Origin: Escherichia coli
GTDB lineage: Bacteria; Pseudomonadota; Gammaproteobacteria; Enterobacterales; Enterobacteriaceae
NCBI RefSeq assembly: GCF_003334305.1
Contig: NZ_QOWS01000009.1
DNA: 64,000 nt
Strand: one strand, 5' to 3'
This document shows, piece after piece, positions 766 through 60,803 of this stretch. Positions within the stretch are counted from its first letter, which is position 1. Each line of letters opens with the position of its first letter. The notes below the pieces were generated by a model. The model did no database searches. It was not told where the DNA came from and saw only the letters and a program-made list of their open reading frames with translations. Both the position numbers and the translations under genes were made by a program.

Positions 766-2169
766 GTGTCACTTTCGCTTTGGCAGCAGTGTCTTGCCCG
801 ATTGCAGGATGAGTTACCAGCCACAGAATTCAGTATGTGGATACGCCCATTGCAGGCGGAACTGAGCGATAACACGCTGGCCCTGTACGCGCCAAACCGT
901 TTTGTCCTCGATTGGGTACGGGACAAGTACCTTAATAATATCAATGGACTGCTAACCAGTTTCTGCGGAGCGGATGCCCCACAGCTGCGTTTTGAAGTCG
1001 GCACCAAACCGGTGACGCAAACGCCACAAGCGGCAGTGACGAGCAACGTCGCGGCCCCTGCACAGGTGGCGCAAACGCAGCCGCAACGTGCTGCGCCTTC
1101 TACGCGCTCAGGTTGGGATAACGTCCCGGCCCCGGCAGAACCGACCTATCGTTCTAACGTAAACGTCAAACACACGTTTGATAACTTCGTCGAAGGTAAA
1201 TCTAACCAACTGGCGCGCGCGGCGGCTCGCCAGGTGGCAGATAACCCTGGCGGTGCCTATAACCCGTTGTTCCTTTATGGCGGCACGGGTCTGGGTAAAA
1301 CTCACCTGCTGCATGCGGTGGGTAACGGCATTATGGCGCGCAAGCCGAATGCCAAAGTGGTTTATATGCACTCCGAGCGCTTTGTTCAGGACATGGTTAA
1401 AGCCCTGCAAAACAACGCGATCGAAGAGTTTAAACGCTACTACCGTTCCGTAGATGCACTGCTGATCGACGATATTCAGTTTTTTGCTAATAAAGAACGA
1501 TCTCAGGAAGAGTTTTTCCACACCTTCAACGCCCTGCTGGAAGGTAATCAACAGATCATTCTCACCTCGGATCGCTATCCGAAAGAGATCAACGGCGTTG
1601 AGGATCGTTTGAAATCCCGCTTCGGTTGGGGACTGACTGTGGCGATCGAACCGCCAGAGCTGGAAACCCGCGTGGCGATCCTGATGAAAAAGGCCGACGA
1701 AAACGACATTCGTTTGCCGGGCGAAGTGGCGTTCTTTATCGCCAAGCGTCTACGATCTAACGTACGTGAGCTGGAAGGGGCGCTGAACCGCGTCATTGCC
1801 AATGCCAACTTTACCGGACGGGCGATCACCATCGACTTCGTGCGTGAGGCGCTGCGCGACTTGCTGGCATTGCAGGAAAAACTGGTCACCATCGACAATA
1901 TTCAGAAGACGGTGGCGGAGTACTACAAGATCAAAGTCGCGGATCTCCTTTCCAAGCGTCGATCCCGCTCGGTGGCGCGTCCGCGCCAGATGGCGATGGC
2001 GCTGGCGAAAGAGCTGACTAACCACAGTCTGCCGGAGATTGGCGATGCGTTTGGTGGTCGTGACCACACGACGGTGCTTCATGCCTGCCGTAAGATCGAG
2101 CAGTTGCGTGAAGAGAGCCACGATATCAAAGAAGATTTTTCAAATTTAATCAGAACATTGTCATCGTAA
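766..2169 (+). CDS. dnaA: Chromosomal replication initiator DnaA (GTG start, 467 aa)
   Basis: Track ORF 754..2169; protein from [13 protein letters not shown] matches E. coli DnaA; AAA+ Walker [11 protein letters not shown]; start moved to the internal GTG. Confidence 0.95.
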
Positions 2170-6808: not shown

Positions 6809-6912
6809 CGTGCCTGATGCGCTACGCTTATCAGGCCTACGAAAATCTTGCAATGTATTGAATTTTCATGATTTTGTAGGCCGGATAAGGCGTTCACGCC
6901 GCATCCGGCAAG
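6809..6912. repeat. REP/BIME-type extragenic palindromic repeats downstream of gyrB
   Basis: Two REP-like palindromes (gcctgatgcgctacgcttatcaggcctac and gtaggccggataaggcgttcacgccgcatccggc) in inverted orientation. Confidence 0.7.
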
Positions 6913-16970: not shown

Positions 16971-17071
16971 TACATCGTAGCCGATGAGGACGCGCCTGAT
17001 GGGTGTTCTGGCTACCTGACCTGTCCATTGTGGAAGGTCTTACATTCTCGCTGATTTCAGGAGCTATGATT

Positions 17072-17485
17072 ATGCGTAACTTTGATTTATCCCCGCTTTA
17101 CCGTTCTGCTATTGGATTTGACCGTTTGTTTAACCACTTAGAAAACAACCAGAGCCAGAGTAATGGCGGCTACCCTCCGTATAACGTTGAACTGGTAGAC
17201 GAAAACCATTACCGCATTGCTATCGCTGTGGCTGGTTTTGCTGAGAGCGAACTGGAAATTACCGCCCAGGATAATCTGCTGGTGGTGAAAGGTGCTCACG
17301 CCGACGAACAAAAAGAGCGCACCTATCTGTACCAGGGCATCGCTGAACGCAACTTTGAACGCAAATTCCAGTTAGCTGAGAACATTCATGTTCGTGGCGC
17401 TAACCTGGTAAATGGTTTGCTGTATATCGATCTCGAACGCGTGATTCCGGAAGCGAAAAAACCGCGCCGTATCGAAATCAACTAA
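17072..17485 (+). CDS. ibpA: Small heat-shock protein IbpA
   Basis: 137 aa from [20 protein letters not shown]; alpha-crystallin domain. Confidence 0.9.
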
Positions 17486-31354: not shown

Positions 31355-31442
31355 AACTGTGATCGATACTCAACTATGCCCTAAATACGTCAAAATTCGT
31401 GCCGAAATTGCGCGTTCTGCGCGGAACACGTATACTTTCAGT

Positions 31443-31518
31443 GTTGACATAATACAGTGTGCTTTGCGGTTACCAGCCGCAGGCGGCTGATGAAACCTCG
31501 CTCCGGCGGGGTTTTTTG
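31443..31518 (+). ncRNA. istR: IstR-1 antitoxin sRNA (longer IstR-2 isoform would start upstream, near 31370-31380)
   Basis: About 75-nt unit ending in an intrinsic terminator (GC-rich stem plus tttttt at 31512-31517); its 5' 20 nt ttgacataatacagtgtgct is near-identical to 31189-31208 in the tisAB leader, so the two RNAs are complementary; TATACT -10 at about 31432. Confidence 0.6.
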
Positions 31519-37466: not shown

Positions 37467-38858
37467 ATGCTGGCTTTCTTAAACCAGGTTCGCAAGCCGA
37501 CCCTGGACCTTCCGCTCGAAGTGCGGCGCAAAATGTGGTTCAAACCGTTCATGCAATCCTACCTGGTGGTCTTTATCGGCTACCTGACGATGTACCTGAT
37601 TCGCAAGAACTTTAACATCGCGCAGAACGACATGATTTCGACCTACGGGTTGAGCATGACGCAACTGGGGATGATCGGCCTGGGTTTCTCCATCACTTAT
37701 GGCGTGGGTAAAACGCTGGTTTCCTACTACGCCGACGGCAAAAACACCAAACAATTCCTGCCGTTTATGCTTATCCTGTCTGCCATTTGTATGCTGGGCT
37801 TCAGTGCCAGTATGGGCAGCGGCTCGGTTAGCCTGTTCCTGATGATTGCCTTCTACGCCTTAAGCGGCTTTTTCCAGAGTACCGGCGGTTCGTGCAGTTA
37901 CTCCACCATCACCAAATGGACGCCGCGTCGTAAACGCGGGACATTCCTCGGTTTCTGGAATATTTCTCACAACCTTGGCGGTGCAGGCGCAGCAGGTGTG
38001 GCGCTGTTCGGGGCAAATTACCTGTTCGATGGCCATGTCATCGGCATGTTTATCTTCCCGTCGATTATCGCGCTGATTGTCGGTTTTATCGGCCTGCGTT
38101 ACGGTAGCGACTCCCCGGAATCTTATGGCCTCGGCAAAGCTGAAGAACTGTTCGGCGAGGAGATCAGCGAAGAGGACAAAGAGACAGAATCTACCGATAT
38201 GACCAAGTGGCAGATCTTTGTTGAGTATGTGCTGAAAAACAAAGTGATCTGGCTGCTGTGCTTCGCCAACATTTTCCTCTATGTGGTACGTATTGGTATC
38301 GACCAGTGGTCAACCGTATACGCGTTCCAGGAACTGAAACTCTCTAAAGCGGTGGCGATTCAGGGCTTTACGCTGTTTGAAGCTGGTGCGCTGGTCGGTA
38401 CGCTGCTGTGGGGCTGGCTCTCTGACCTGGCGAACGGTCGCCGTGGCCTGGTGGCCTGCATCGCGCTGGCGTTGATTATCGCCACGCTCGGTGTGTATCA
38501 ACATGCCAGCAACGAATATATCTATCTGGCTTCTCTCTTTGCGTTGGGTTTCCTGGTCTTTGGCCCGCAATTGTTGATTGGTGTGGCTGCTGTTGGCTTT
38601 GTACCTAAAAAAGCGATTGGCGCTGCCGATGGTATTAAAGGCACCTTTGCTTACCTGATTGGTGACAGCTTTGCCAAGTTAGGTCTGGGAATGATTGCCG
38701 ATGGGACGCCGGTATTCGGCCTTACCGGCTGGGCAGGCACATTCGCCGCACTTGATATCGCCGCGATTGGTTGTATCTGCCTGATGGCGATAGTGGCGGT
38801 GATGGAAGAACGCAAAATCCGCCGCGAGAAAAAAATTCAGCAGTTGACAGTGGCATAA
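37467..38858 (+). CDS. uhpT: Hexose-phosphate:phosphate antiporter UhpT (MFS)
   Basis: 463-aa [27 protein letters not shown]. Confidence 0.95.
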
Positions 38859-38877
38859 ACGTAACTGGTGACTTTTG

Positions 38878-38902
38878 CCCGGCATGACGCCGGGCTTTTT
38901 TA
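38878..38902. terminator. Bidirectional terminator between uhpT and ade
   Basis: Hairpin gcccggcatgacgccgggc followed by tttttt. Confidence 0.7.
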
Positions 38903-50095: not shown

Positions 50096-52414
50096 ATGAA
50101 AATTAGCGATGGAAACTGGTTGATTCAACCTGGCCTCAATTTGATTCACCCGCTTCAGGTGTTCGAGGTTGAACAGCAGGATAATGAAATGGTGGTCTAT
50201 GCTGCCCCCCGTGATGTGCGTGAACGTACCTGGCAGCTTGATACGCCTTTATTTACGTTGCGCTTTTTCTCCCCACAGGAAGGTATTGTCGGTGTGCGGA
50301 TTGAGCATTTTCAGGGGGCGCTGAATAACGGTCCTCATTATCCGCTCAATATTTTGCAGGACGTGAAGGTCACAATCGAAAACACAGAACGTTATGCTGA
50401 GTTTAAAAGTGGCAACTTAAGCGCGCGTGTCAGCAAAGGTGAGTTCTGGTCACTGGATTTTCTGCGCAACGGCGAACGTATTACCGGTAGTCAGGTGAAA
50501 AATAATGGCTACGTGCAGGACACGAATAATCAACGCAATTATATGTTTGAGCGGCTTGATCTTGGCGTTGGCGAAACAGTTTACGGTCTGGGAGAGCGCT
50601 TTACTGCCCTGGTGCGCAATGGCCAGACGGTAGAGACCTGGAACCGGGACGGCGGCACAAGTACTGAACAGGCGTATAAAAATATCCCGTTCTACATGAC
50701 TAACCGTGGTTATGGGGTACTGGTCAATCATCCCCAGTGTGTCTCTTTTGAAGTGGGATCGGAGAAAGTCTCCAAAGTGCAGTTCAGCGTTGAGAGTGAA
50801 TATCTCGAATACTTTGTTATCGACGGCCCGACGCCGAAAGCGGTACTTGATCGTTATACCCGCTTTACTGGTCGTCCGGCGCTGCCGCCCGCGTGGTCCT
50901 TCGGCCTGTGGCTAACCACTTCATTTACCACCAACTACGACGAAGCGACGGTAAACAGCTTTATCGATGGTATGGCGGAACGCAATCTGCCGCTGCATGT
51001 TTTCCACTTTGACTGTTTCTGGATGAAAGCCTTCCAGTGGTGCGATTTTGAGTGGGACCCGCTGACTTTCCCTGACCCGGAAGGGATGATCCGCCGCCTG
51101 AAAGCGAAAGGGCTGAAAATCTGCGTCTGGATTAACCCCTATATCGGTCAAAAATCCCCCGTCTTTAAAGAGTTACAAGAGAAAGGCTATTTACTCAAAC
51201 GCCCCGACGGTTCGCTATGGCAGTGGGATAAATGGCAGCCAGGTCTGGCGATTTATGACTTTACCAATCCGGATGCCTGCAAATGGTACGCCGACAAACT
51301 GAAAGGTCTGGTCGCGATGGGCGTTGATTGCTTTAAGACCGACTTTGGCGAACGTATCCCAACTGATGTTCAGTGGTTTGACGGTTCCGATCCGCAGAAA
51401 ATGCATAACCATTATGCGTACATCTACAACGAACTGGTGTGGAACGTGCTCAAGGACACCGTTGGTGAGGAAGAAGCTGTCTTGTTTGCCCGCTCGGCCT
51501 CCGTCGGTGCGCAGAAATTCCCGGTACACTGGGGTGGCGATTGTTACGCTAACTACGAATCAATGGCGGAAAGCCTGCGCGGTGGTTTGTCTATTGGCCT
51601 TTCAGGTTTTGGCTTCTGGAGCCACGATATCGGCGGCTTTGAAAATACCGCTCCGGCGCACGTTTACAAACGCTGGTGCGCGTTTGGTTTGCTCTCCAGC
51701 CATAGCCGTTTACACGGTAGCAAATCTTATCGTGTGCCGTGGGCCTACGATGATGAGTCCTGTGATGTGGTGCGCTTCTTCACGCAACTGAAATGCCGCA
51801 TGATGCCGTATCTGTATCGTGAAGCTGCGCGTGCGAACGCGCGGGGTACGCCGATGATGCGGGCCATGATGATGGAGTTCCCGGACGATCCGGCTTGTGA
51901 TTACCTTGACCGTCAATACATGTTAGGCGACAACGTGATGGTTGCGCCGGTGTTCACTGAAGCGGGCGATGTGCAGTTCTACCTGCCGGAAGGTCGCTGG
52001 ACACACCTGTGGCACAACGATGAACTCGACGGTAGTCGCTGGCATAAACAGCAGCACGGCTTCCTGAGTCTGCCCGTTTATGTGCGTGATAACACTCTAC
52101 TGGCGCTGGGCAACAACGATCAACGTCCCGATTACGTGTGGCACGAAGGCACGGCATTCCACCTCTTTAATCTGCAAGACGGGCATGAAGCCGTCTGTGA
52201 AGTGCCCGCTACTGACGGATCGGTGATCTTTACTTTAAAAGCAGCACGTACTGGCAACACGATTACTGTGACTGGTGCGGGCGAGGCGAAGAACTGGACG
52301 CTGTGCCTGCGCAATGTTGTGAAAGTAAATGGTCTGCAAGACGGTTCGCAGGCTGAAAGTGAGCAGGGGCTGGTGGTGAAGCCTCAAGGGAATGCGCTGA
52401 CAATTACGTTGTAA
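50096..52414 (+). CDS. yicI: Alpha-xylosidase (GH31)
   Basis: 772-aa ORF, co-directional 9 bp after yicJ. Confidence 0.9.
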
Positions 52415-52428
52415 TCTATTGATGGAAT

Positions 52429-52456
52429 GCCGGGTACGTCTGAGTCGTACCCGGCG
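52429..52456. terminator. Bidirectional hairpin between yicI and yicH
   Basis: Perfect inverted repeat gccgggtacg ... cgtacccggc. Confidence 0.6.
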
Positions 52457-52466
52457 AGATTGATGT

Positions 52467-54176
52467 TTACCGCACCGGCTCCGTCGATGTAACTTCACCG
52501 CTGGAAACGATGCCAGCATTCATGGTTTGAGTCACTTGCTGCTTTGCGGCGTTCACGGCATGCAATTGCCCGCTAACCGTAGGTTTCAACGGGACATTGG
52601 CCTGAATATCGCCACTGGCGGTAAGCTGAATATTGCCGTCGCCAGTCAACGGTAATTTAGGCCATCCCCACTGTTGCAAAATATTCACCGGCACACCGCG
52701 TCCATTCAGGCTGATATGTGTCTGACGTTGTGGCGTTTGTGAAACACTGGCGGTGGCTTCCAGAATGCCTTTTTCAGTAAATGCACTCAGTTCGCTGATA
52801 TTCACCGTGCTGCTGTTGGCGGTCAGCGCCAGCGACGGGCGACGAACATCAACACGATTGAATGTCGCGGCGGCGGCATTCAGATTCGCCGAGCCACTCC
52901 AGACGCCCCATTTATGATCGGTAACCAGCGTCAGGTTGGCACCGTAACCATCGAGCGTGGTGAGCTGCCACGGGAAGTCAGGGTCGATATCAATGATCAG
53001 ATTGCGGCTGGCGCTAAATCTCTTCAGTTGCAGGCTGTTTAACCAACCGGGTGTCGTTTCCATCCACAACTGTTGCCAGTTTTTCGGCAAGGTATATTCC
53101 AGCCCGGCAATTGCCGCATCATCAAGGATCAACGTTTTCCCGTCACGCAGCCAGTTCCCTGACGTTCTGACCATACCCCCTTCCCAGCGGCTGGTGAACT
53201 GGCGCAGCGCTACGCCCTGCGGGGAAAATTCCGCGTTTATAATCGGGTCAAATAAATGCAGCGAACCATAAATGAACTCTCTAGCGTTCATCGACAGTTT
53301 GCCTTCTTGTGTCTGCCAGTCATCTTTACTGAAGGTCATGTTGCGCAAGCTGAGATCGAGGTCGGTCACCGCCCAGTCCGGACCTTGCAAACGAGCATCG
53401 ATCACTTCCAGGCGACCAATCTGCAACGACGGGACAGAGCGTAATGGCGCAAAGAAGTCGGTTAGCGATTTTTCGCTTTGTAGACGTATATCCGCCATGC
53501 GCAGGTTTTCCACTTGCCAGCTGCCGTCGGCGTTACGCTGCGCGTTTCCGGTTAATGTCCCGCGGGCGATGTCGGCACCCAGGTTAGTCAGCGTAACGCG
53601 ATCATTATCAATACTGCCTTCAATCAGTACATTGGTGGCAGGAACATCATTGAGCGAAAGCGATCCGGCACTAAACTGAATCTGCGCCTTCGTACCCAGC
53701 ACTTTACCGGCTTCTGGTGACCACGGAACCACGCCGCCATTTACCCGCTGCGCGCTCAGTTTCCATTCGCTATTCGGGCTATTAAACGCCATATCACGCA
53801 GTTGCAGACGATCGGCTTTGAACGGTAGCGGCGCGGTCTGGTCGGTGAGATTCAGCGTCCCGTTTTCCAGCAGGATGGTATCGACATGGCGTGGTTCGGT
53901 CAGTTGCCGACTGCTTAGCGCAATGTCGACACTTTTTGCCACCAGGGTCGCGGGCTGACCATCACGACCAAACGTGACGTTCTCCAGCACGATATGAGAT
54001 GGCGCGGAAAAACGGTGATCCATCGCCCCGAAGGCCAGATGATAGTCGCTATTCTCGGAAACCCATGCGCTGATATGTTCTGCTCCCCAGCGGGTTTGCA
54101 GAAGAAAATAGAGGCCAGCGATCACCACTAACAGAGCGATGAGAATGTAGAGAAGCAGCTTCCCAATAAATTTCAT
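52467..54176 (-). CDS. yicH: AsmA-family protein YicH
   Basis: Track ORF 52467..54200; start at MKFIGKLLLYILIALLVVIAG (N-terminal TM anchor), 569 aa. Confidence 0.85.
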   Translation of the reverse strand: MKFIGKLLLYILIALLVVIAGLYFLLQTRWGAEHISAWVSENSDYHLAFGAMDHRFSAPSHIVLENVTFGRDGQPATLVAKSVDIALSSRQLTEPRHVDTILLENGTLNLTDQTAPLPFKADRLQLRDMAFNSPNSEWKLSAQRVNGGVVPWSPEAGKVLGTKAQIQFSAGSLSLNDVPATNVLIEGSIDNDRVTLTNLGADIARGTLTGNAQRNADGSWQVENLRMADIRLQSEKSLTDFFAPLRSVPSLQIGRLEVIDARLQGPDWAVTDLDLSLRNMTFSKDDWQTQEGKLSMNAREFIYGSLHLFDPIINAEFSPQGVALRQFTSRWEGGMVRTSGNWLRDGKTLILDDAAIAGLEYTLPKNWQQLWMETTPGWLNSLQLKRFSASRNLIIDIDPDFPWQLTTLDGYGANLTLVTDHKWGVWSGSANLNAAAATFNRVDVRRPSLALTANSSTVNISELSAFTEKGILEATASVSQTPQRQTHISLNGRGVPVNILQQWGWPKLPLTGDGNIQLTASGDIQANVPLKPTVSGQLHAVNAAKQQVTQTMNAGIVSSGEVTSTEPVR

Positions 54177-55967: not shown

Positions 55968-57173
55968 ATGTTTCATCTCGATACTTTAGCAACGCTTGTT
56001 GCCGCAACGCTGACGTTGCTGCTCGGGCGTAAGTTGGTCCATTCCGTCTCCTTTTTGAAGAAATACACCATACCGGAACCTGTTGCGGGTGGTTTGTTGG
56101 TGGCGCTGGCGCTACTAGTACTGAAAAAAAGCATGGGCTGGGAAGTCAACTTTGATATGTCCCTGCGCGATCCGTTAATGCTGGCTTTCTTCGCCACCAT
56201 TGGCCTGAACGCCAACATTGCCAGTTTGCGTGCCGGTGGGCGTGTGGTTGGCATCTTCTTGATTGTGGTTGTTGGTCTGTTGGTGATGCAAAATGCCATT
56301 GGCATTGGTATGGCTAGCCTGTTAGGGCTTGATCCGCTGATGGGGCTGTTGGCCGGTTCTATTACGCTTTCCGGCGGTCACGGTACGGGCGCTGCGTGGA
56401 GTAAATTGTTCATTGAACGTTATGGCTTCACCAATGCGACGGAAGTGGCGATGGCCTGTGCAACGTTCGGTCTGGTGCTGGGCGGCTTGATTGGCGGTCC
56501 GGTGGCGCGCTATCTGGTGAAACACTCCACCACGCCGAACGGTATTCCGGATGACCAGGAAGTCCCGACGGCGTTTGAAAAGCCGGATGTGGGCCGCATG
56601 ATCACCTCGCTGGTGCTGATTGAAACTATCGCGCTGATTGCTATCTGCCTGACGGTGGGGAAAATTGTTGCGCAACTTTTGGCTGGCACTGCTTTTGAAC
56701 TGCCGACCTTCGTCTGTGTCCTGTTTGTTGGCGTGATTCTGAGCAACGGTCTGTCAATGATGGGCTTTTACCGCGTCTTTGAGCGTGCGGTATCCGTGCT
56801 GGGTAACGTAAGCCTGTCGTTGTTCCTGGCGATGGCGCTGATGGGGCTGAAACTGTGGGAGCTGGCTTCGCTGGCGCTGCCGATGCTGGCGATTCTGGTG
56901 GTACAGACCATCTTCATGGCGTTGTATGCCATCTTCGTTACCTGGCGCATGATGGGCAAAAACTACGATGCGGCAGTGCTGGCTGCGGGTCACTGTGGTT
57001 TTGGCCTCGGTGCAACGCCAACGGCAATCGCCAACATGCAGGCGATCACTGAACGCTTTGGCCCGTCGCACATGGCGTTTTTGGTGGTGCCGATGGTCGG
57101 TGCGTTCTTTATCGATATCGTCAATGCGCTGGTGATTAAGCTGTATTTAATGTTGCCGATTTTTGCCGGTTAA
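55968..57173 (+). CDS. gltS: Sodium/glutamate symporter GltS
   Basis: 401-aa ORF MFHLDTLATLVAATLTLLLGRKLV. Confidence 0.9.
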   Translation: MFHLDTLATLVAATLTLLLGRKLVHSVSFLKKYTIPEPVAGGLLVALALLVLKKSMGWEVNFDMSLRDPLMLAFFATIGLNANIASLRAGGRVVGIFLIVVVGLLVMQNAIGIGMASLLGLDPLMGLLAGSITLSGGHGTGAAWSKLFIERYGFTNATEVAMACATFGLVLGGLIGGPVARYLVKHSTTPNGIPDDQEVPTAFEKPDVGRMITSLVLIETIALIAICLTVGKIVAQLLAGTAFELPTFVCVLFVGVILSNGLSMMGFYRVFERAVSVLGNVSLSLFLAMALMGLKLWELASLALPMLAILVVQTIFMALYAIFVTWRMMGKNYDAAVLAAGHCGFGLGATPTAIANMQAITERFGPSHMAFLVVPMVGAFFIDIVNALVIKLYLMLPIFAG

Positions 57174-57175
57174 AA

Positions 57176-58042
57176 ATGAAAAAGCGTCGGAAGGAACCGG
57201 AAACGCTACGTGAACACTGTCGCCATATTTTTGGTGATGAGCCGCCAGTGCTCTGTGTATGGGAAACGGAATTTGATTACGCAGATGCCGAACTCAAGGC
57301 GCTGGCGGCTAAAGAGTGGCAGCAGATCAGCGTATGGGATTTGAGTGCTTACTATGTACTCAATCTCGTTTATAACGAACCGATGCAAATAGATTTGTTT
57401 CGCTATCTGTTTCCGCTCTGCCTGGCGCAATGGCATGAAACCGTTTTAGCTGGCGGTTATGGTGATCACTTCGAAGAATCCTTAATGAAGGCATTGTGTC
57501 GGCCCTATCTCTGGCAGGAGATGATGAATGCTTCCCAACGCCAGCAGGTACGGCAATTTTTACTGGACACCGCGTTGCAGCGTATGGATAACGAGCGTGG
57601 TTTCAATAACGTTCTTTGCTGGCTGGCGGTGTTCAATACTCTGGGTGGGGCCGCGCCGTTAATTCGTTCTCTCTGGTCGCGCTGGTGGGCGCTGGATACG
57701 CCAGGAAAAGCGGTGTGTGCTATTCAGTATGCCGCGCATCTAATTTATCCCATAGAAGCCAATCCGTTATGGTCGCAAGAATGGATAGGCTGGGGGCATC
57801 CATTAGGCCATAAAGATGGCTGGTCCTCTGATAATCGCGCTTTTCTTCGCCAAATGTTAACACCTGAAATGATTGTGGCTGGCGTACAGGCAGCGGCTGA
57901 AATTCTGCGTGGTGAACCGGAAGGCGCAATGGCGGCGCGAATTGCACAGGATGCGTATGAGGCAATGGATATCCTCACTATCCAGATTGAAGATTTACTG
58001 CGTGACTTGTCTTGTGATGAGTCTGGTCATGCGTTGGAGTAA
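57176..58042 (+). CDS. Hypothetical cytoplasmic protein (288 aa, Trp-rich, no recognised domain)
   Basis: Uninterrupted 288-codon ORF starting 2 nt after the gltS stop (TAA-AA-ATG) and ending 16 nt inside the convergent recG 3' end; no comparable ORF on the opposite strand; composition typical of E. coli. Confidence 0.5.
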   Translation: MKKRRKEPETLREHCRHIFGDEPPVLCVWETEFDYADAELKALAAKEWQQISVWDLSAYYVLNLVYNEPMQIDLFRYLFPLCLAQWHETVLAGGYGDHFEESLMKALCRPYLWQEMMNASQRQQVRQFLLDTALQRMDNERGFNNVLCWLAVFNTLGGAAPLIRSLWSRWWALDTPGKAVCAIQYAAHLIYPIEANPLWSQEWIGWGHPLGHKDGWSSDNRAFLRQMLTPEMIVAGVQAAAEILRGEPEGAMAARIAQDAYEAMDILTIQIEDLLRDLSCDESGHALE

Positions 58043-60108
58043 CGTTCCGTCTCCGGCATCCAGCGTTCTATCAGGGCTTTTGCTTGTTGTGGGTAACGTT
58101 CGTGAATATGTCGCGCCAGGCGCTGAACTTCCGGGATCATCGCCTGATCGCGCAGTAAATCCGCCACTTTAAATTCAGCATTACCCGTCTGACGCGTGCC
58201 TAACAATTCGCCAGGGCCGCGAATCTCCAGATCTTTTTGCGCAATCACAAAACCGTCGTTACTGTCGCGCAGCACTTGCAGGCGAATTTGCGCCGTTTTG
58301 GAGAGCGGCGTTTTGTAGAGCAGCACGCAGTGAGAAGCCACCGCGCCACGACCTACGCGCCCGCGCAGCTGGTGTAACTGCGCTAGACCCAGACGCTCAG
58401 GGTTTTCGATAATCATCAGACTGGCGTTAGGCACATCAACGCCGACTTCAATAACGGTAGTGGCAACCAGCAGTTGTAGCTCACCTTGTTTAAACGACGC
58501 CATCACCGCCTGTTTCTCGGCTGGTTTCATCCGCCCGTGTACCAGGCCAACATTCAATTCTGGTAGCGCCAGTTTCAACTCTTCCCAGGTAGCTTCCGCC
58601 GCCTGCGCTTCCAGTAACTCTGACTCTTCAATCAACGTACAAACCCAGTACGCCTGACGACCTTCAGTCATGCAGGCGTGGCGCACGCGGTCAATGATGT
58701 CGGTACGGCGGGTATCAGGAATAGCGACCGTAGTCACTGGCGTGCGGCCTGGCGGCAGCTCATCTATCACCGAGGTATCGAGATCGGCATACGCCGTCAT
58801 TGCCAGCGTGCGGGGGATCGGCGTGGCGGTCATGATCAACTGATGCGGATGGAAGCCCTGCTGCTGGCCTTTCTCCCACAATGCCAGACGCTGATGCACG
58901 CCAAAACGATGCTGTTCATCGATAATCACCAGCGCCAGACCGTTAAACTGCACCTGTTCCTGGAAGATGGCGTGTGTACCGACAATCATCTGCACCTGAC
59001 CGCTGGCGATGGCTTCCTGCTGTGCCAGTCGCGCTTTACCTTTCTGCTTACCGGCGAGCCAGCCCACTTCGATACCGAGCGGTGCAAACCAGTTGCGGAA
59101 GTTATTGGCGTGCTGCTCGGCGAGTAATTCGGTTGGTGCCATCAGGGCCACCTGTTTGCCGTGGGCAATCGCACGCAGCGCGGCGAGGGCGGCGACCAGT
59201 GTTTTACCGGAACCTACATCGCCCTGCACCAGGCGCATCATTGGAACATCCAGCGCCATATCATGCTCGATCTCCGCCACTACGCGTGCCTGTGCGCCCG
59301 TTGGCTTGAACGGTAAGGCGGCGAGGAGTTTATTTTTCAGCGCGTCATTGGCGCTCAGCGGCTGGGCATGAAAACGCTGTGCTCCGGCACGTAAGGCTAA
59401 CATGCTGAGGTTGTGCGCCAGCAGTTCTTCCAGAATCAGACGACGTTGCGCCGGATGCTGCCCGGTTTCCAGATCGCTAAGCTGTAGCGTCGGCGGCGGG
59501 CGGTGCAAAGTGCGCAACGCTTCCGGTAGCGTCATCATTCCTTGTGACAGTTCCGGCGGCAGGAGTTCTTCAATGGCGCAGGTGTCGAGCAGATCCAGCG
59601 CCTGGTCGGTTAATTTACGCAGCGTGGCCTGCTTTACGCCTTCCGTTGTTGGATAAACCGGCGTGAGCGTTTCCTGTAATTCTGGCGTGCTGAGATCGCC
59701 CTGCACGCGGTATTCCGGGTGGATCATCTCCGCACCATATTTACCGCGCTTTGCTTCGCCATAAGCCAGTACACGGCGGCCCGTCGCCAGGCTATTTTTC
59801 ATTGCCGCGCTGAAATTGAAAAAGCGCATGGTGAGGATGCCGGAACCGTCGCTGATCTGGCAGGTCATCATCCGCCGACCGCCGAAGGAGATATTGCAGT
59901 TCAGCACTTCGCCTTCCACCGTGGCATAAACGCCCGGCAGTAGTTCTCCGATGGGGTAGAGATGGGTGCGATCTTCGTAGCGCAGGGGAAGGTGTAAGAG
60001 TAGATCCTGCACGGTATGCAGGTTGATTTTCGCCAGTTTGTTACTAAGTGCTGCGCCAACGCCCGTTAGGGAACTGAGTGGGACAGCATCTAACAGGCGA
60101 CCTTTCAT
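58027..60108 (-). CDS. recG: ATP-dependent DNA helicase RecG
   Basis: Track ORF 58027..60141; start at MKGRLLDAVPLSSLTGVGA to give 693 aa; Walker A GDVGSGKT. Confidence 0.9.
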   Translation of the reverse strand: MKGRLLDAVPLSSLTGVGAALSNKLAKINLHTVQDLLLHLPLRYEDRTHLYPIGELLPGVYATVEGEVLNCNISFGGRRMMTCQISDGSGILTMRFFNFSAAMKNSLATGRRVLAYGEAKRGKYGAEMIHPEYRVQGDLSTPELQETLTPVYPTTEGVKQATLRKLTDQALDLLDTCAIEELLPPELSQGMMTLPEALRTLHRPPPTLQLSDLETGQHPAQRRLILEELLAHNLSMLALRAGAQRFHAQPLSANDALKNKLLAALPFKPTGAQARVVAEIEHDMALDVPMMRLVQGDVGSGKTLVAALAALRAIAHGKQVALMAPTELLAEQHANNFRNWFAPLGIEVGWLAGKQKGKARLAQQEAIASGQVQMIVGTHAIFQEQVQFNGLALVIIDEQHRFGVHQRLALWEKGQQQGFHPHQLIMTATPIPRTLAMTAYADLDTSVIDELPPGRTPVTTVAIPDTRRTDIIDRVRHACMTEGRQAYWVCTLIEESELLEAQAAEATWEELKLALPELNVGLVHGRMKPAEKQAVMASFKQGELQLLVATTVIEVGVDVPNASLMIIENPERLGLAQLHQLRGRVGRGAVASHCVLLYKTPLSKTAQIRLQVLRDSNDGFVIAQKDLEIRGPGELLGTRQTGNAEFKVADLLRDQAMIPEVQRLARHIHERYPQQAKALIERWMPETERYSNA

Positions 60109-60113
60109 GGCAC

Positions 60114-60803
60114 TTACCCTGCAGCCTGCATAGTAGCCCACCAGTCGGCATCAGCTTCGATCTCGCCTTGCTGATTGACGTGGGGATAAGGCAGGCCTTT
60201 GCGTTTTGCGACTTTCGCCAGCACCGGATAGCCGCCTTCAAACAACAGGCGTTGTTGCTCTGCTTCCGGCAACATGCTGTTTTCACGCAGGTACATGCCT
60301 GCATTTTGCCGCTGACGCTGGGCTTCGTAAAGAATGAGGGCTGAGGCAACGGAAACATTCAGCGACTGCACCATGCCGATCATCGGAATGATGATGTCCT
60401 GATCCGCCAGGGCCAATGCTTCCTGCGTGATGCCCGTTTTCTCCTGTCCCATCAAAATGCAGGTCGGGCGAGTGTAATCAATTTCGCGGAAATCGACAGC
60501 GTTATCAGAAAGATGGGTTGCCAGAATCTGCATGCCCTGGCCTTTGAGATGAGCGACGGCATCGCCAATGGTGCGGTGTGTTTTCACCTGTACCCAGCTG
60601 TTACTACCCGCCGCTGCCGAAGCCATGGTGCGCATGCGGCTACCAGGCCAGACGGCGTGAACTTCATGTACGCCAACGGCATCTGCGGTACGAATAATCG
60701 CAGAAACGTTATGAGGTTTGTGGACCTGCTCCATGCAGACGGTCAGATCAGGCTGCCGCCTGGCGAGCATTTCGCAGATGCGTGCATAACGTGTTGGGTT
60801 CAT
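60114..60803 (-). CDS. trmH: tRNA (Gm18) 2'-O-methyltransferase TrmH (SpoU)
   Basis: 229-aa ORF between spoT and recG. Confidence 0.9.
   Translation of the reverse strand: MNPTRYARICEMLARRQPDLTVCMEQVHKPHNVSAIIRTADAVGVHEVHAVWPGSRMRTMASAAAGSNSWVQVKTHRTIGDAVAHLKGQGMQILATHLSDNAVDFREIDYTRPTCILMGQEKTGITQEALALADQDIIIPMIGMVQSLNVSVASALILYEAQRQRQNAGMYLRENSMLPEAEQQRLLFEGGYPVLAKVAKRKGLPYPHVNQQGEIEADADWWATMQAAG

Follow-up and report, generated by a model that had tools for sequence, protein, structure and literature searches.

The gene that lies between gltS and recG in some strains of Escherichia coli is already catalogued, under names that carry no functional information. It is Ybl159 in UniProt, ECB_03510 in E. 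coli B REL606, WP_000747336.1 ('hypothetical protein') in RefSeq and, very likely, STM3745 in Salmonella enterica LT2, where the orthologue occupies the same gltS–ORF–recG position; this last equation is based on the 852-nt size of the gene, its position and its 'putative cytoplasmic protein' label. Blount et al. (bioRxiv 10.1101/2020.01.22.915975) mention the E. coli B gene, located 'immediately downstream of gltS', as one of 'unknown function'. A literature search for ybl159 itself returned one false match only. A possible structural relative, the domain of unknown function DUF1822 (PF08852), has been described as a tetratricopeptide-repeat protein in neighbourhoods with an extracytoplasmic function (ECF) sigma factor and caspase-domain proteins (Kaur et al., eLife 2021, PMC8195603). 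Here we analyse the copy of ybl159 in a 64,000-nucleotide stretch of E. coli DNA (assembly GCF_003334305.1, contig NZ_QOWS01000009.1; the window), in which it is an open reading frame (ORF) of 288 codons at 57176–58042 on the plus strand. We find that it is a genuine gene, one that has long resided next to the 3′ end of recG in Enterobacteriaceae and that many lineages, K-12 among them, have lost or had replaced.

The ORF starts with ATG 2 nt after the TAA stop codon of gltS (55968–57173, plus strand), which encodes the 401-aa Na+/glutamate symporter, and the junction across the spacer (57174–57175) reads '...GGTTAAAAATGAAAAAG'. At its other end it overlaps the convergent recG (58027–60108, minus strand, 693 aa as annotated) tail to tail by 16 nt (58027–58042). 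This arrangement, together with the N-terminus, reproduces the preliminary description of the window, which had been made from the letters alone. According to the RefSeq annotation, strain H15 carries a 100% identical copy. A mechanical ORF call extends recG to an upstream GTG at 60141 (704 aa), overlapping trmH; the RefSeq start is 60108, and the longer version is an ORF-calling artefact and no real feature.

Homologues that are 63–71% identical occur in Salmonella enterica and Superficieibacter, the Salmonella orthologue (283 aa) being 68–71% identical, and others at 44–55% identity are found in Intestinirhabdus, 'Enterobacter sp. kpr-6', Leminorella and further enterics. The order gltS–ORF–recG is kept in Salmonella (L003) and in one other locus (L005), with a distance to gltS of 1 nt in the former and a 1-nt overlap in the latter. 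Elsewhere the upstream neighbour differs: Intestinirhabdus (L017), Enterobacter sp. kpr-6 (L018) and L055 have xanP there, on the opposite strand, whereas Superficieibacter (L015) and L051 have glpX. In all of these loci, as in the window, the ORF is convergent with the 3′ end of recG, and the 16-nt overlap itself recurs in three enteric lineages (L017, L051 and L055/L056). Because relatives carry xanP or glpX upstream, the conserved linkage of the gene is to the recG 3′ end and not to gltS. A simple reason for this linkage may be that there is no intergenic room for a rearrangement breakpoint. In Leminorella, the homologue directly follows gapA. A 219-aa homologue (P0031) comes from a 4.9-Mb assembly (L054, CP073335.1) in which xanP, recG and spoT are also split into fragments, which is probably the mark of an error-rich long-read assembly rather than of real pseudogenisation.

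The sequence of ybl159 evolves fast yet under purifying selection. Between E. coli and Salmonella, the rate of nonsynonymous substitution (dN, estimated by the NG86 method) is 0.223 for the ORF, against 0.041 for gltS and 0.040 for recG, or about five times that of its neighbours; its ratio to the synonymous rate (dN/dS) is about 0.08 when calculated with the dS of the ORF itself and about 0.2 when that of the flanking genes is used, dS being saturated. Within E. coli, a 97.3%-identical allele (EC556) shows 24 nucleotide and 12 amino acid differences and a dN/dS of 0.30. An intact coding sequence is annotated at all 58 full-length matches in a spread sample of complete E. coli genomes. Two departures from integrity are on record: a truncated variant of 219 aa (P0002) with 269 member sequences, and, in the D23580 lineage of S. 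Typhimurium, a premature stop codon in STM3745 (PMC3853940). The G+C content at third codon positions (GC3) is 0.495, compared with 0.60–0.65 in neighbouring genes. With dN/dS at 0.08–0.30, and so not near 1, and a frame kept across enterics at 44–71% amino acid identity, the ORF is no chance frame.

The window and K-12 part exactly at the gltS stop codon (57173) and their homology restarts at 58031. As the preliminary description had stated, recG (b3652) and gltS (b3653) are adjacent in MG1655, 168 bp apart and with no ORF between them, and the sequence of this spacer is unrelated to the 857-bp segment that holds the ORF. Across 5,426 complete E. coli genomes we distinguish three alleles of the interval. 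The ORF allele occurs in 1,912 (about 35%), every copy being chromosomal, and carriers include O157:H7, O111, O103, O145, B7A and the BL21 derivative Nico21(DE3), whose copy is 99.8% identical; identity is at least 99% in 1,872 of the 1,918 genomes that match the ORF. The K-12-type spacer is present in 1,869 genomes. A third allele, to which the remaining genomes are assigned as judged from a spread sample, has a short spacer of about 33 nt, for example in CFT073 (L027 501–533); carriers other than CFT073 we take to be ST131/B2 strains. The short spacer contains a hairpin, GCGGCGG-TCTTCTCA-CCGCCGC, followed by CTTTT, and the K-12 spacer (L001 3293–3460) corresponds to this short allele, its two hairpin arms separated by an insertion of about 135 bp that we take to be similar to repetitive extragenic palindromes (REP-like). 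All three alleles encode RYSNA* in the last five codons of recG, where the ORF allele differs from the others by four synonymous changes and a different stop codon.

The preliminary description had proposed that the gene is absent or deleted in K-12. Its absence is borne out, whereas a simple deletion is not, as K-12 has a different allele, a terminator hairpin with the REP-like insertion; the absence is an ordinary accessory-gene polymorphism. The start of the short spacer, 'ATGAAGCGGCGG', resembles the start of the ORF, 'ATGAAAAAGCGTCGG', and nothing else aligns; the CFT073-type spacer might be a deletion remnant of the ORF, or the likeness might be coincidental.

How the alleles could have been exchanged is suggested by the divergence around the ORF. 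The 15 kb around selC (38634–53633) are 99.6% identical to and colinear with K-12. The mismatch rate is higher in the last 900 nt of gltS, at about 1.2%, and in the first 1.5 kb of recG, at about 2.5% with up to 10 mismatches per 250 nt; beyond 59500 it falls to 0–1 per 250 nt, and away from the ORF the region is 99.6–99.9% identical. Windowed mismatch counts thus place the ORF in a divergent tract of about 3 kb (approximately 56250–59500), consistent with what allele exchange by homologous recombination would leave. Since the divergence is confined to this tract, homologous exchange is indicated rather than site-specific insertion.

A mobile-element origin was considered and rejected, with no phage, viral or genuine plasmid matches: the gene is absent from IMG/VR and INPHARED and has no PHROG match, and of three 'plasmid' matches one is a record of chromosomal size (4.8 Mb) and one a fragment carrying recG, none looking like plasmid cargo.

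The product has a mass of 33.2 kDa, a pI of 4.97 and 13 Trp (4.5%), a net charge of −8 over its C-terminal 40 residues and no transmembrane-like segment (maximum Kyte–Doolittle average over 19 residues, 1.46), in agreement with its initial portrayal as soluble, Trp-rich and acidic at the C-terminus. That portrayal had also left the protein unnamed, and so it stays: it is unmatched in Pfam (even at E ≤ 10), NCBIfam, PADLOC, PHROGs and PDB sequences, none of 112 homologues matches any Pfam family (E ≤ 0.001), and no specific structural neighbour was found. No component model of anti-phage defence in PADLOC-DB v2 matched the E. coli protein or either of two distant homologues (E ≤ 1).

An exhaustive phmmer search of 1.84 billion representatives nevertheless revealed a sizeable family, with 293 homologue clusters at E ≤ 1e-3 and 27 at E ≤ 1e-30. 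These roughly 290 clusters (at 50% identity) are scattered over Proteobacteria and Planctomycetes and include no characterised protein, nor does Pfam or NCBIfam model the family; most full-length members have about 270–330 aa, and the best 150 matches include no domain fusions. The C-terminal extension of one 366-aa member (P0046) was considered as a fused domain and rejected as low-complexity read-through. A profile of one family alignment (A2) run against a 5.8-billion-protein collection, in a search that depends on a word index, gained almost nothing. In a 90%-identity collection, the 288-aa protein falls within a 9,280-member cluster represented by the 401-aa GltS (P0194), and the cluster of the Salmonella orthologue likewise holds GltS fragments. 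GltS and the ORF product share no sequence, and these mixed clusters were presumably chained by a fused or frameshifted gltS–ORF call; as a consequence, the full-length E. coli protein is hidden from representative-based searches and is missing from one of our homologue lists.

The family shares a core motif, EP(M/L)QP(E/D)LFRYLFPxCL, present in both of our alignments (A1 and A2). At least 90% conserved in the 112 sequences are Y60, Q71, P80, L83, W86, W170, G177, W216 and N220; with W29 and F33, the family-conserved positions are almost all aromatic or aliphatic, Q71 and N220 aside. The same alignment has no conserved acid/base, nucleophile or metal-ligand set, and we read the conservation as a packing-type pattern. 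A 'GGGxPxLWE' loop is common in distant members and deleted in the enteric subfamily. AlphaFold2, given the 112-sequence alignment, returned a confident model (pLDDT, the predicted local distance difference test, 94.1; pTM, the predicted template modelling score, 0.91) consisting of 15 helices, with no strand reaching three residues. The product is thus a soluble, acidic, cytoplasmic protein with a predicted alpha-solenoid-like fold. A Foldseek search of AFDB50 with this model recovered 'Ybl159' in E. coli (99–100% identity) and 'putative cytoplasmic protein' in Salmonella, and further family members in Cupriavidus, Leminorella, Sulfurovum, Gimesia, Lignipirellula and Actibacterium.

Genomic context outside enterics, annotated with NCBIfam, PADLOC and batched Pfam searches, offered no recurrent partner gene across the homologue loci examined. 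In a metagenome-assembled genome of Zoogloeaceae, a retropepsin-like gene precedes the homologue with a 4-nt overlap, and in one metagenomic lineage (L011, L013 and L014) a Barstar (PF01337) gene lies 2 nt downstream. In Cupriavidus-like genomes, a conserved block (L020 7176–10520, L007 5381–7643 and L038 5176–8520) holds small unannotated ORFs beside McrBC-like genes: one of about 141 aa upstream on the opposite strand, others of 78 and 164 aa downstream of the homologue and, in L020 and L038, two extra inserted ORFs (116 and 144 aa). In L044 the homologue stands in a run of small, mostly unannotated ORFs, among them two with matches to the HEAT-repeat part of a single NCBIfam model. On planctomycete and other contigs, neighbours include LysR regulators, a CMD-family protein, an M28 peptidase, oxidoreductases, small HEAT_2 proteins and a Schlafen/AlbA_2 protein. 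Neighbours pooled from L004, L007, L011, L020, L022 and L023 contain DUF6714 (two members) and DUF6869 (one), on which a literature search found no papers.

The idea that ybl159 is co-transcribed with gltS, first suggested by their tight spacing, gains support. Consensus scans detected neither promoter-like nor terminator-like sites at the gltS–ORF junction or after the ORF. RNA-seq of REL606-derived clones has shown expression of both gltS and ECB_03510 to be strongly reduced in one clone compared with two others (bioRxiv 10.1101/2020.01.22.915975), which is direct evidence that E. coli B transcribes the gene and regulates it together with gltS, and indirect evidence for a bicistron. A sigma-70 scan for a promoter of the ORF's own came up empty in E. 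coli and equally in relatives without gltS upstream, and is uninformative on this point; Rfam places no RNA family in or near the ORF. Because no promoter-like or terminator-like site separates the genes and because they respond together in REL606, gltS is probably the proximal gene of a gltS–ORF bicistron in E. coli. ORF-type strains, furthermore, lack the terminator-like hairpin found downstream of gltS in the other alleles, which makes convergent read-through between the gltS–ORF and spoT–recG transcripts plausible there and, if true, a strain-specific regulatory difference.

What the protein does must be judged from these combined lines of evidence. On balance, and with moderate confidence, we favour an old recG-side gene whose helical-solenoid product is a non-enzymatic partner binder. 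Given the packing-type conservation without a catalytic set and nearest folds that are ARM/HEAT/TOG scaffolds, the product would most likely have no enzymatic activity and instead bind another macromolecule, probably a protein. That K-12 and about 65% of strains are without the gene leads us to infer that it is dispensable under laboratory conditions. The same absence could be taken to mean that ybl159 is a decaying relic without current function in E. coli, kept through linkage to recG and gltS, an idea to which the truncated P0002, the premature stop in D23580 and the low GC3 also lend themselves. We consider it very improbable, as dN/dS is far from 1, every full-length match in our sample is intact, the frame is preserved down to 44–48% identity and the AlphaFold2 model obtained from the natural alignment is highly confident. 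An enzyme of an unrecognised all-alpha class, acting on a small molecule, is improbable in our view: some all-alpha enzymes are of similar size, and the Trp content, the 'GGGxPxLWE' loop of most members, Q71 and N220 could line a ligand pocket, to be set against the missing catalytic set.

For a binder, fast evolution, patchy distribution and behaviour as a single-gene 'cassette' make a conflict- or immunity-type role fit slightly better than a housekeeping one. In its most specific form, ybl159 would be an orphan immunity-type protein, a stand-alone protective gene neutralising polymorphic toxins of the contact-dependent inhibition (CDI), type VI secretion system (T6SS) or Rhs type from competitors. 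A dN five times that of the flanking genes, presence that varies within a species, sporadic occurrence across distant phyla, a small, cytoplasmic and apparently non-enzymatic product, the Barstar tandem and the small-ORF settings in Cupriavidus and L044 all speak for it; we nonetheless regard it as somewhat unlikely, as neither a toxin partner nor an Imm-family match was found. The tight spacing to gltS in E. coli, Salmonella and L005 and the joint down-regulation in REL606 clones would instead suit a GltS-linked accessory or regulatory factor, translationally coupled to gltS and serving as a cytoplasmic modulator of Na+/glutamate symport or glutamate handling. Five enteric lineages (L017, L018, L055, L015 and L051) keep the gene without an adjacent gltS, however, non-enteric homologues have no Glt_symporter neighbour, and K-12 and B2 strains have gltS at the locus without the ORF, so that we give this reading little credence. 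The broader proposition, that the family is a new class of stand-alone protective or immunity-type binders, or alternatively a GltS-coupled cytoplasmic modulator, with the E. coli ORF as its representative, we hold to be unlikely; were it true, about one third of E. coli strains, O157:H7 and BL21 among them, would have a trait that K-12 lacks.

Among other features of the window, the tRNA-Sec gene selC (48321–48411, minus strand; Rfam) is a classic integration site for pathogenicity islands, and the colinear 15 kb around it carry no island in this strain. Rfam matches at gathering score to the IstR small RNA (sRNA), the AsdA antisense RNA of dnaA, the ROSE_2 thermoregulator and the ES036/CssrF sRNA, at 31388–31517 (plus), 1276–1356 (minus), 17007–17078 (plus) and 6833–6875 (minus) as listed, appear to be expected E. 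coli features.

Ancestral in Enterobacteriaceae, ybl159 is a clean example of a gene missed by K-12-centred knowledge; otherwise it is one of many accessory hypothetical genes. As BL21 and REL606 carry it and K-12 does not, an isogenic comparison would be easy, and the confident model together with the 112-sequence alignment would permit a new Pfam/DUF entry for this family of about 290 clusters.

Compared with known structures, the closest PDB matches are ARM/HEAT/TOG scaffolds, namely ZYG11B (9bid), Rix1 (8ptw) and the Cep104 TOG domain (5lph), all weak and with 145–189 residues aligned. What is shared is an all-alpha stack of helical hairpins, and HEAT/ARM profiles do not recognise tandem helical-hairpin repeats in the ORF product. 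A DUF1822 protein in AFDB50 (A0A651E1C9, 278 aa) superposes with a template modelling (TM) score of 0.79–0.82 at 20% identity and is similar in length and all-alpha. The link to DUF1822 is this single structural match, whereas none of the 112 family members matches PF08852 (E ≤ 0.1), and no ECF sigma or caspase-domain gene occurs among the homologue neighbours checked against Pfam. With regard to polymorphic-toxin immunity proteins (Pfam Imm, SUKH and Barstar), the differences are that none of the 112 homologues matches an immunity family (Imm*, SUKH/SMI1_KNR4, Barstar or CdiI), that no toxin gene stands next to a homologue at any locus examined and that the context in enterics is one of housekeeping genes. 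The likeness to these proteins lies instead in a small, cytoplasmic and fast-evolving product, encoded by a stand-alone gene of sporadic distribution and placed, in one lineage, in tandem with Barstar.
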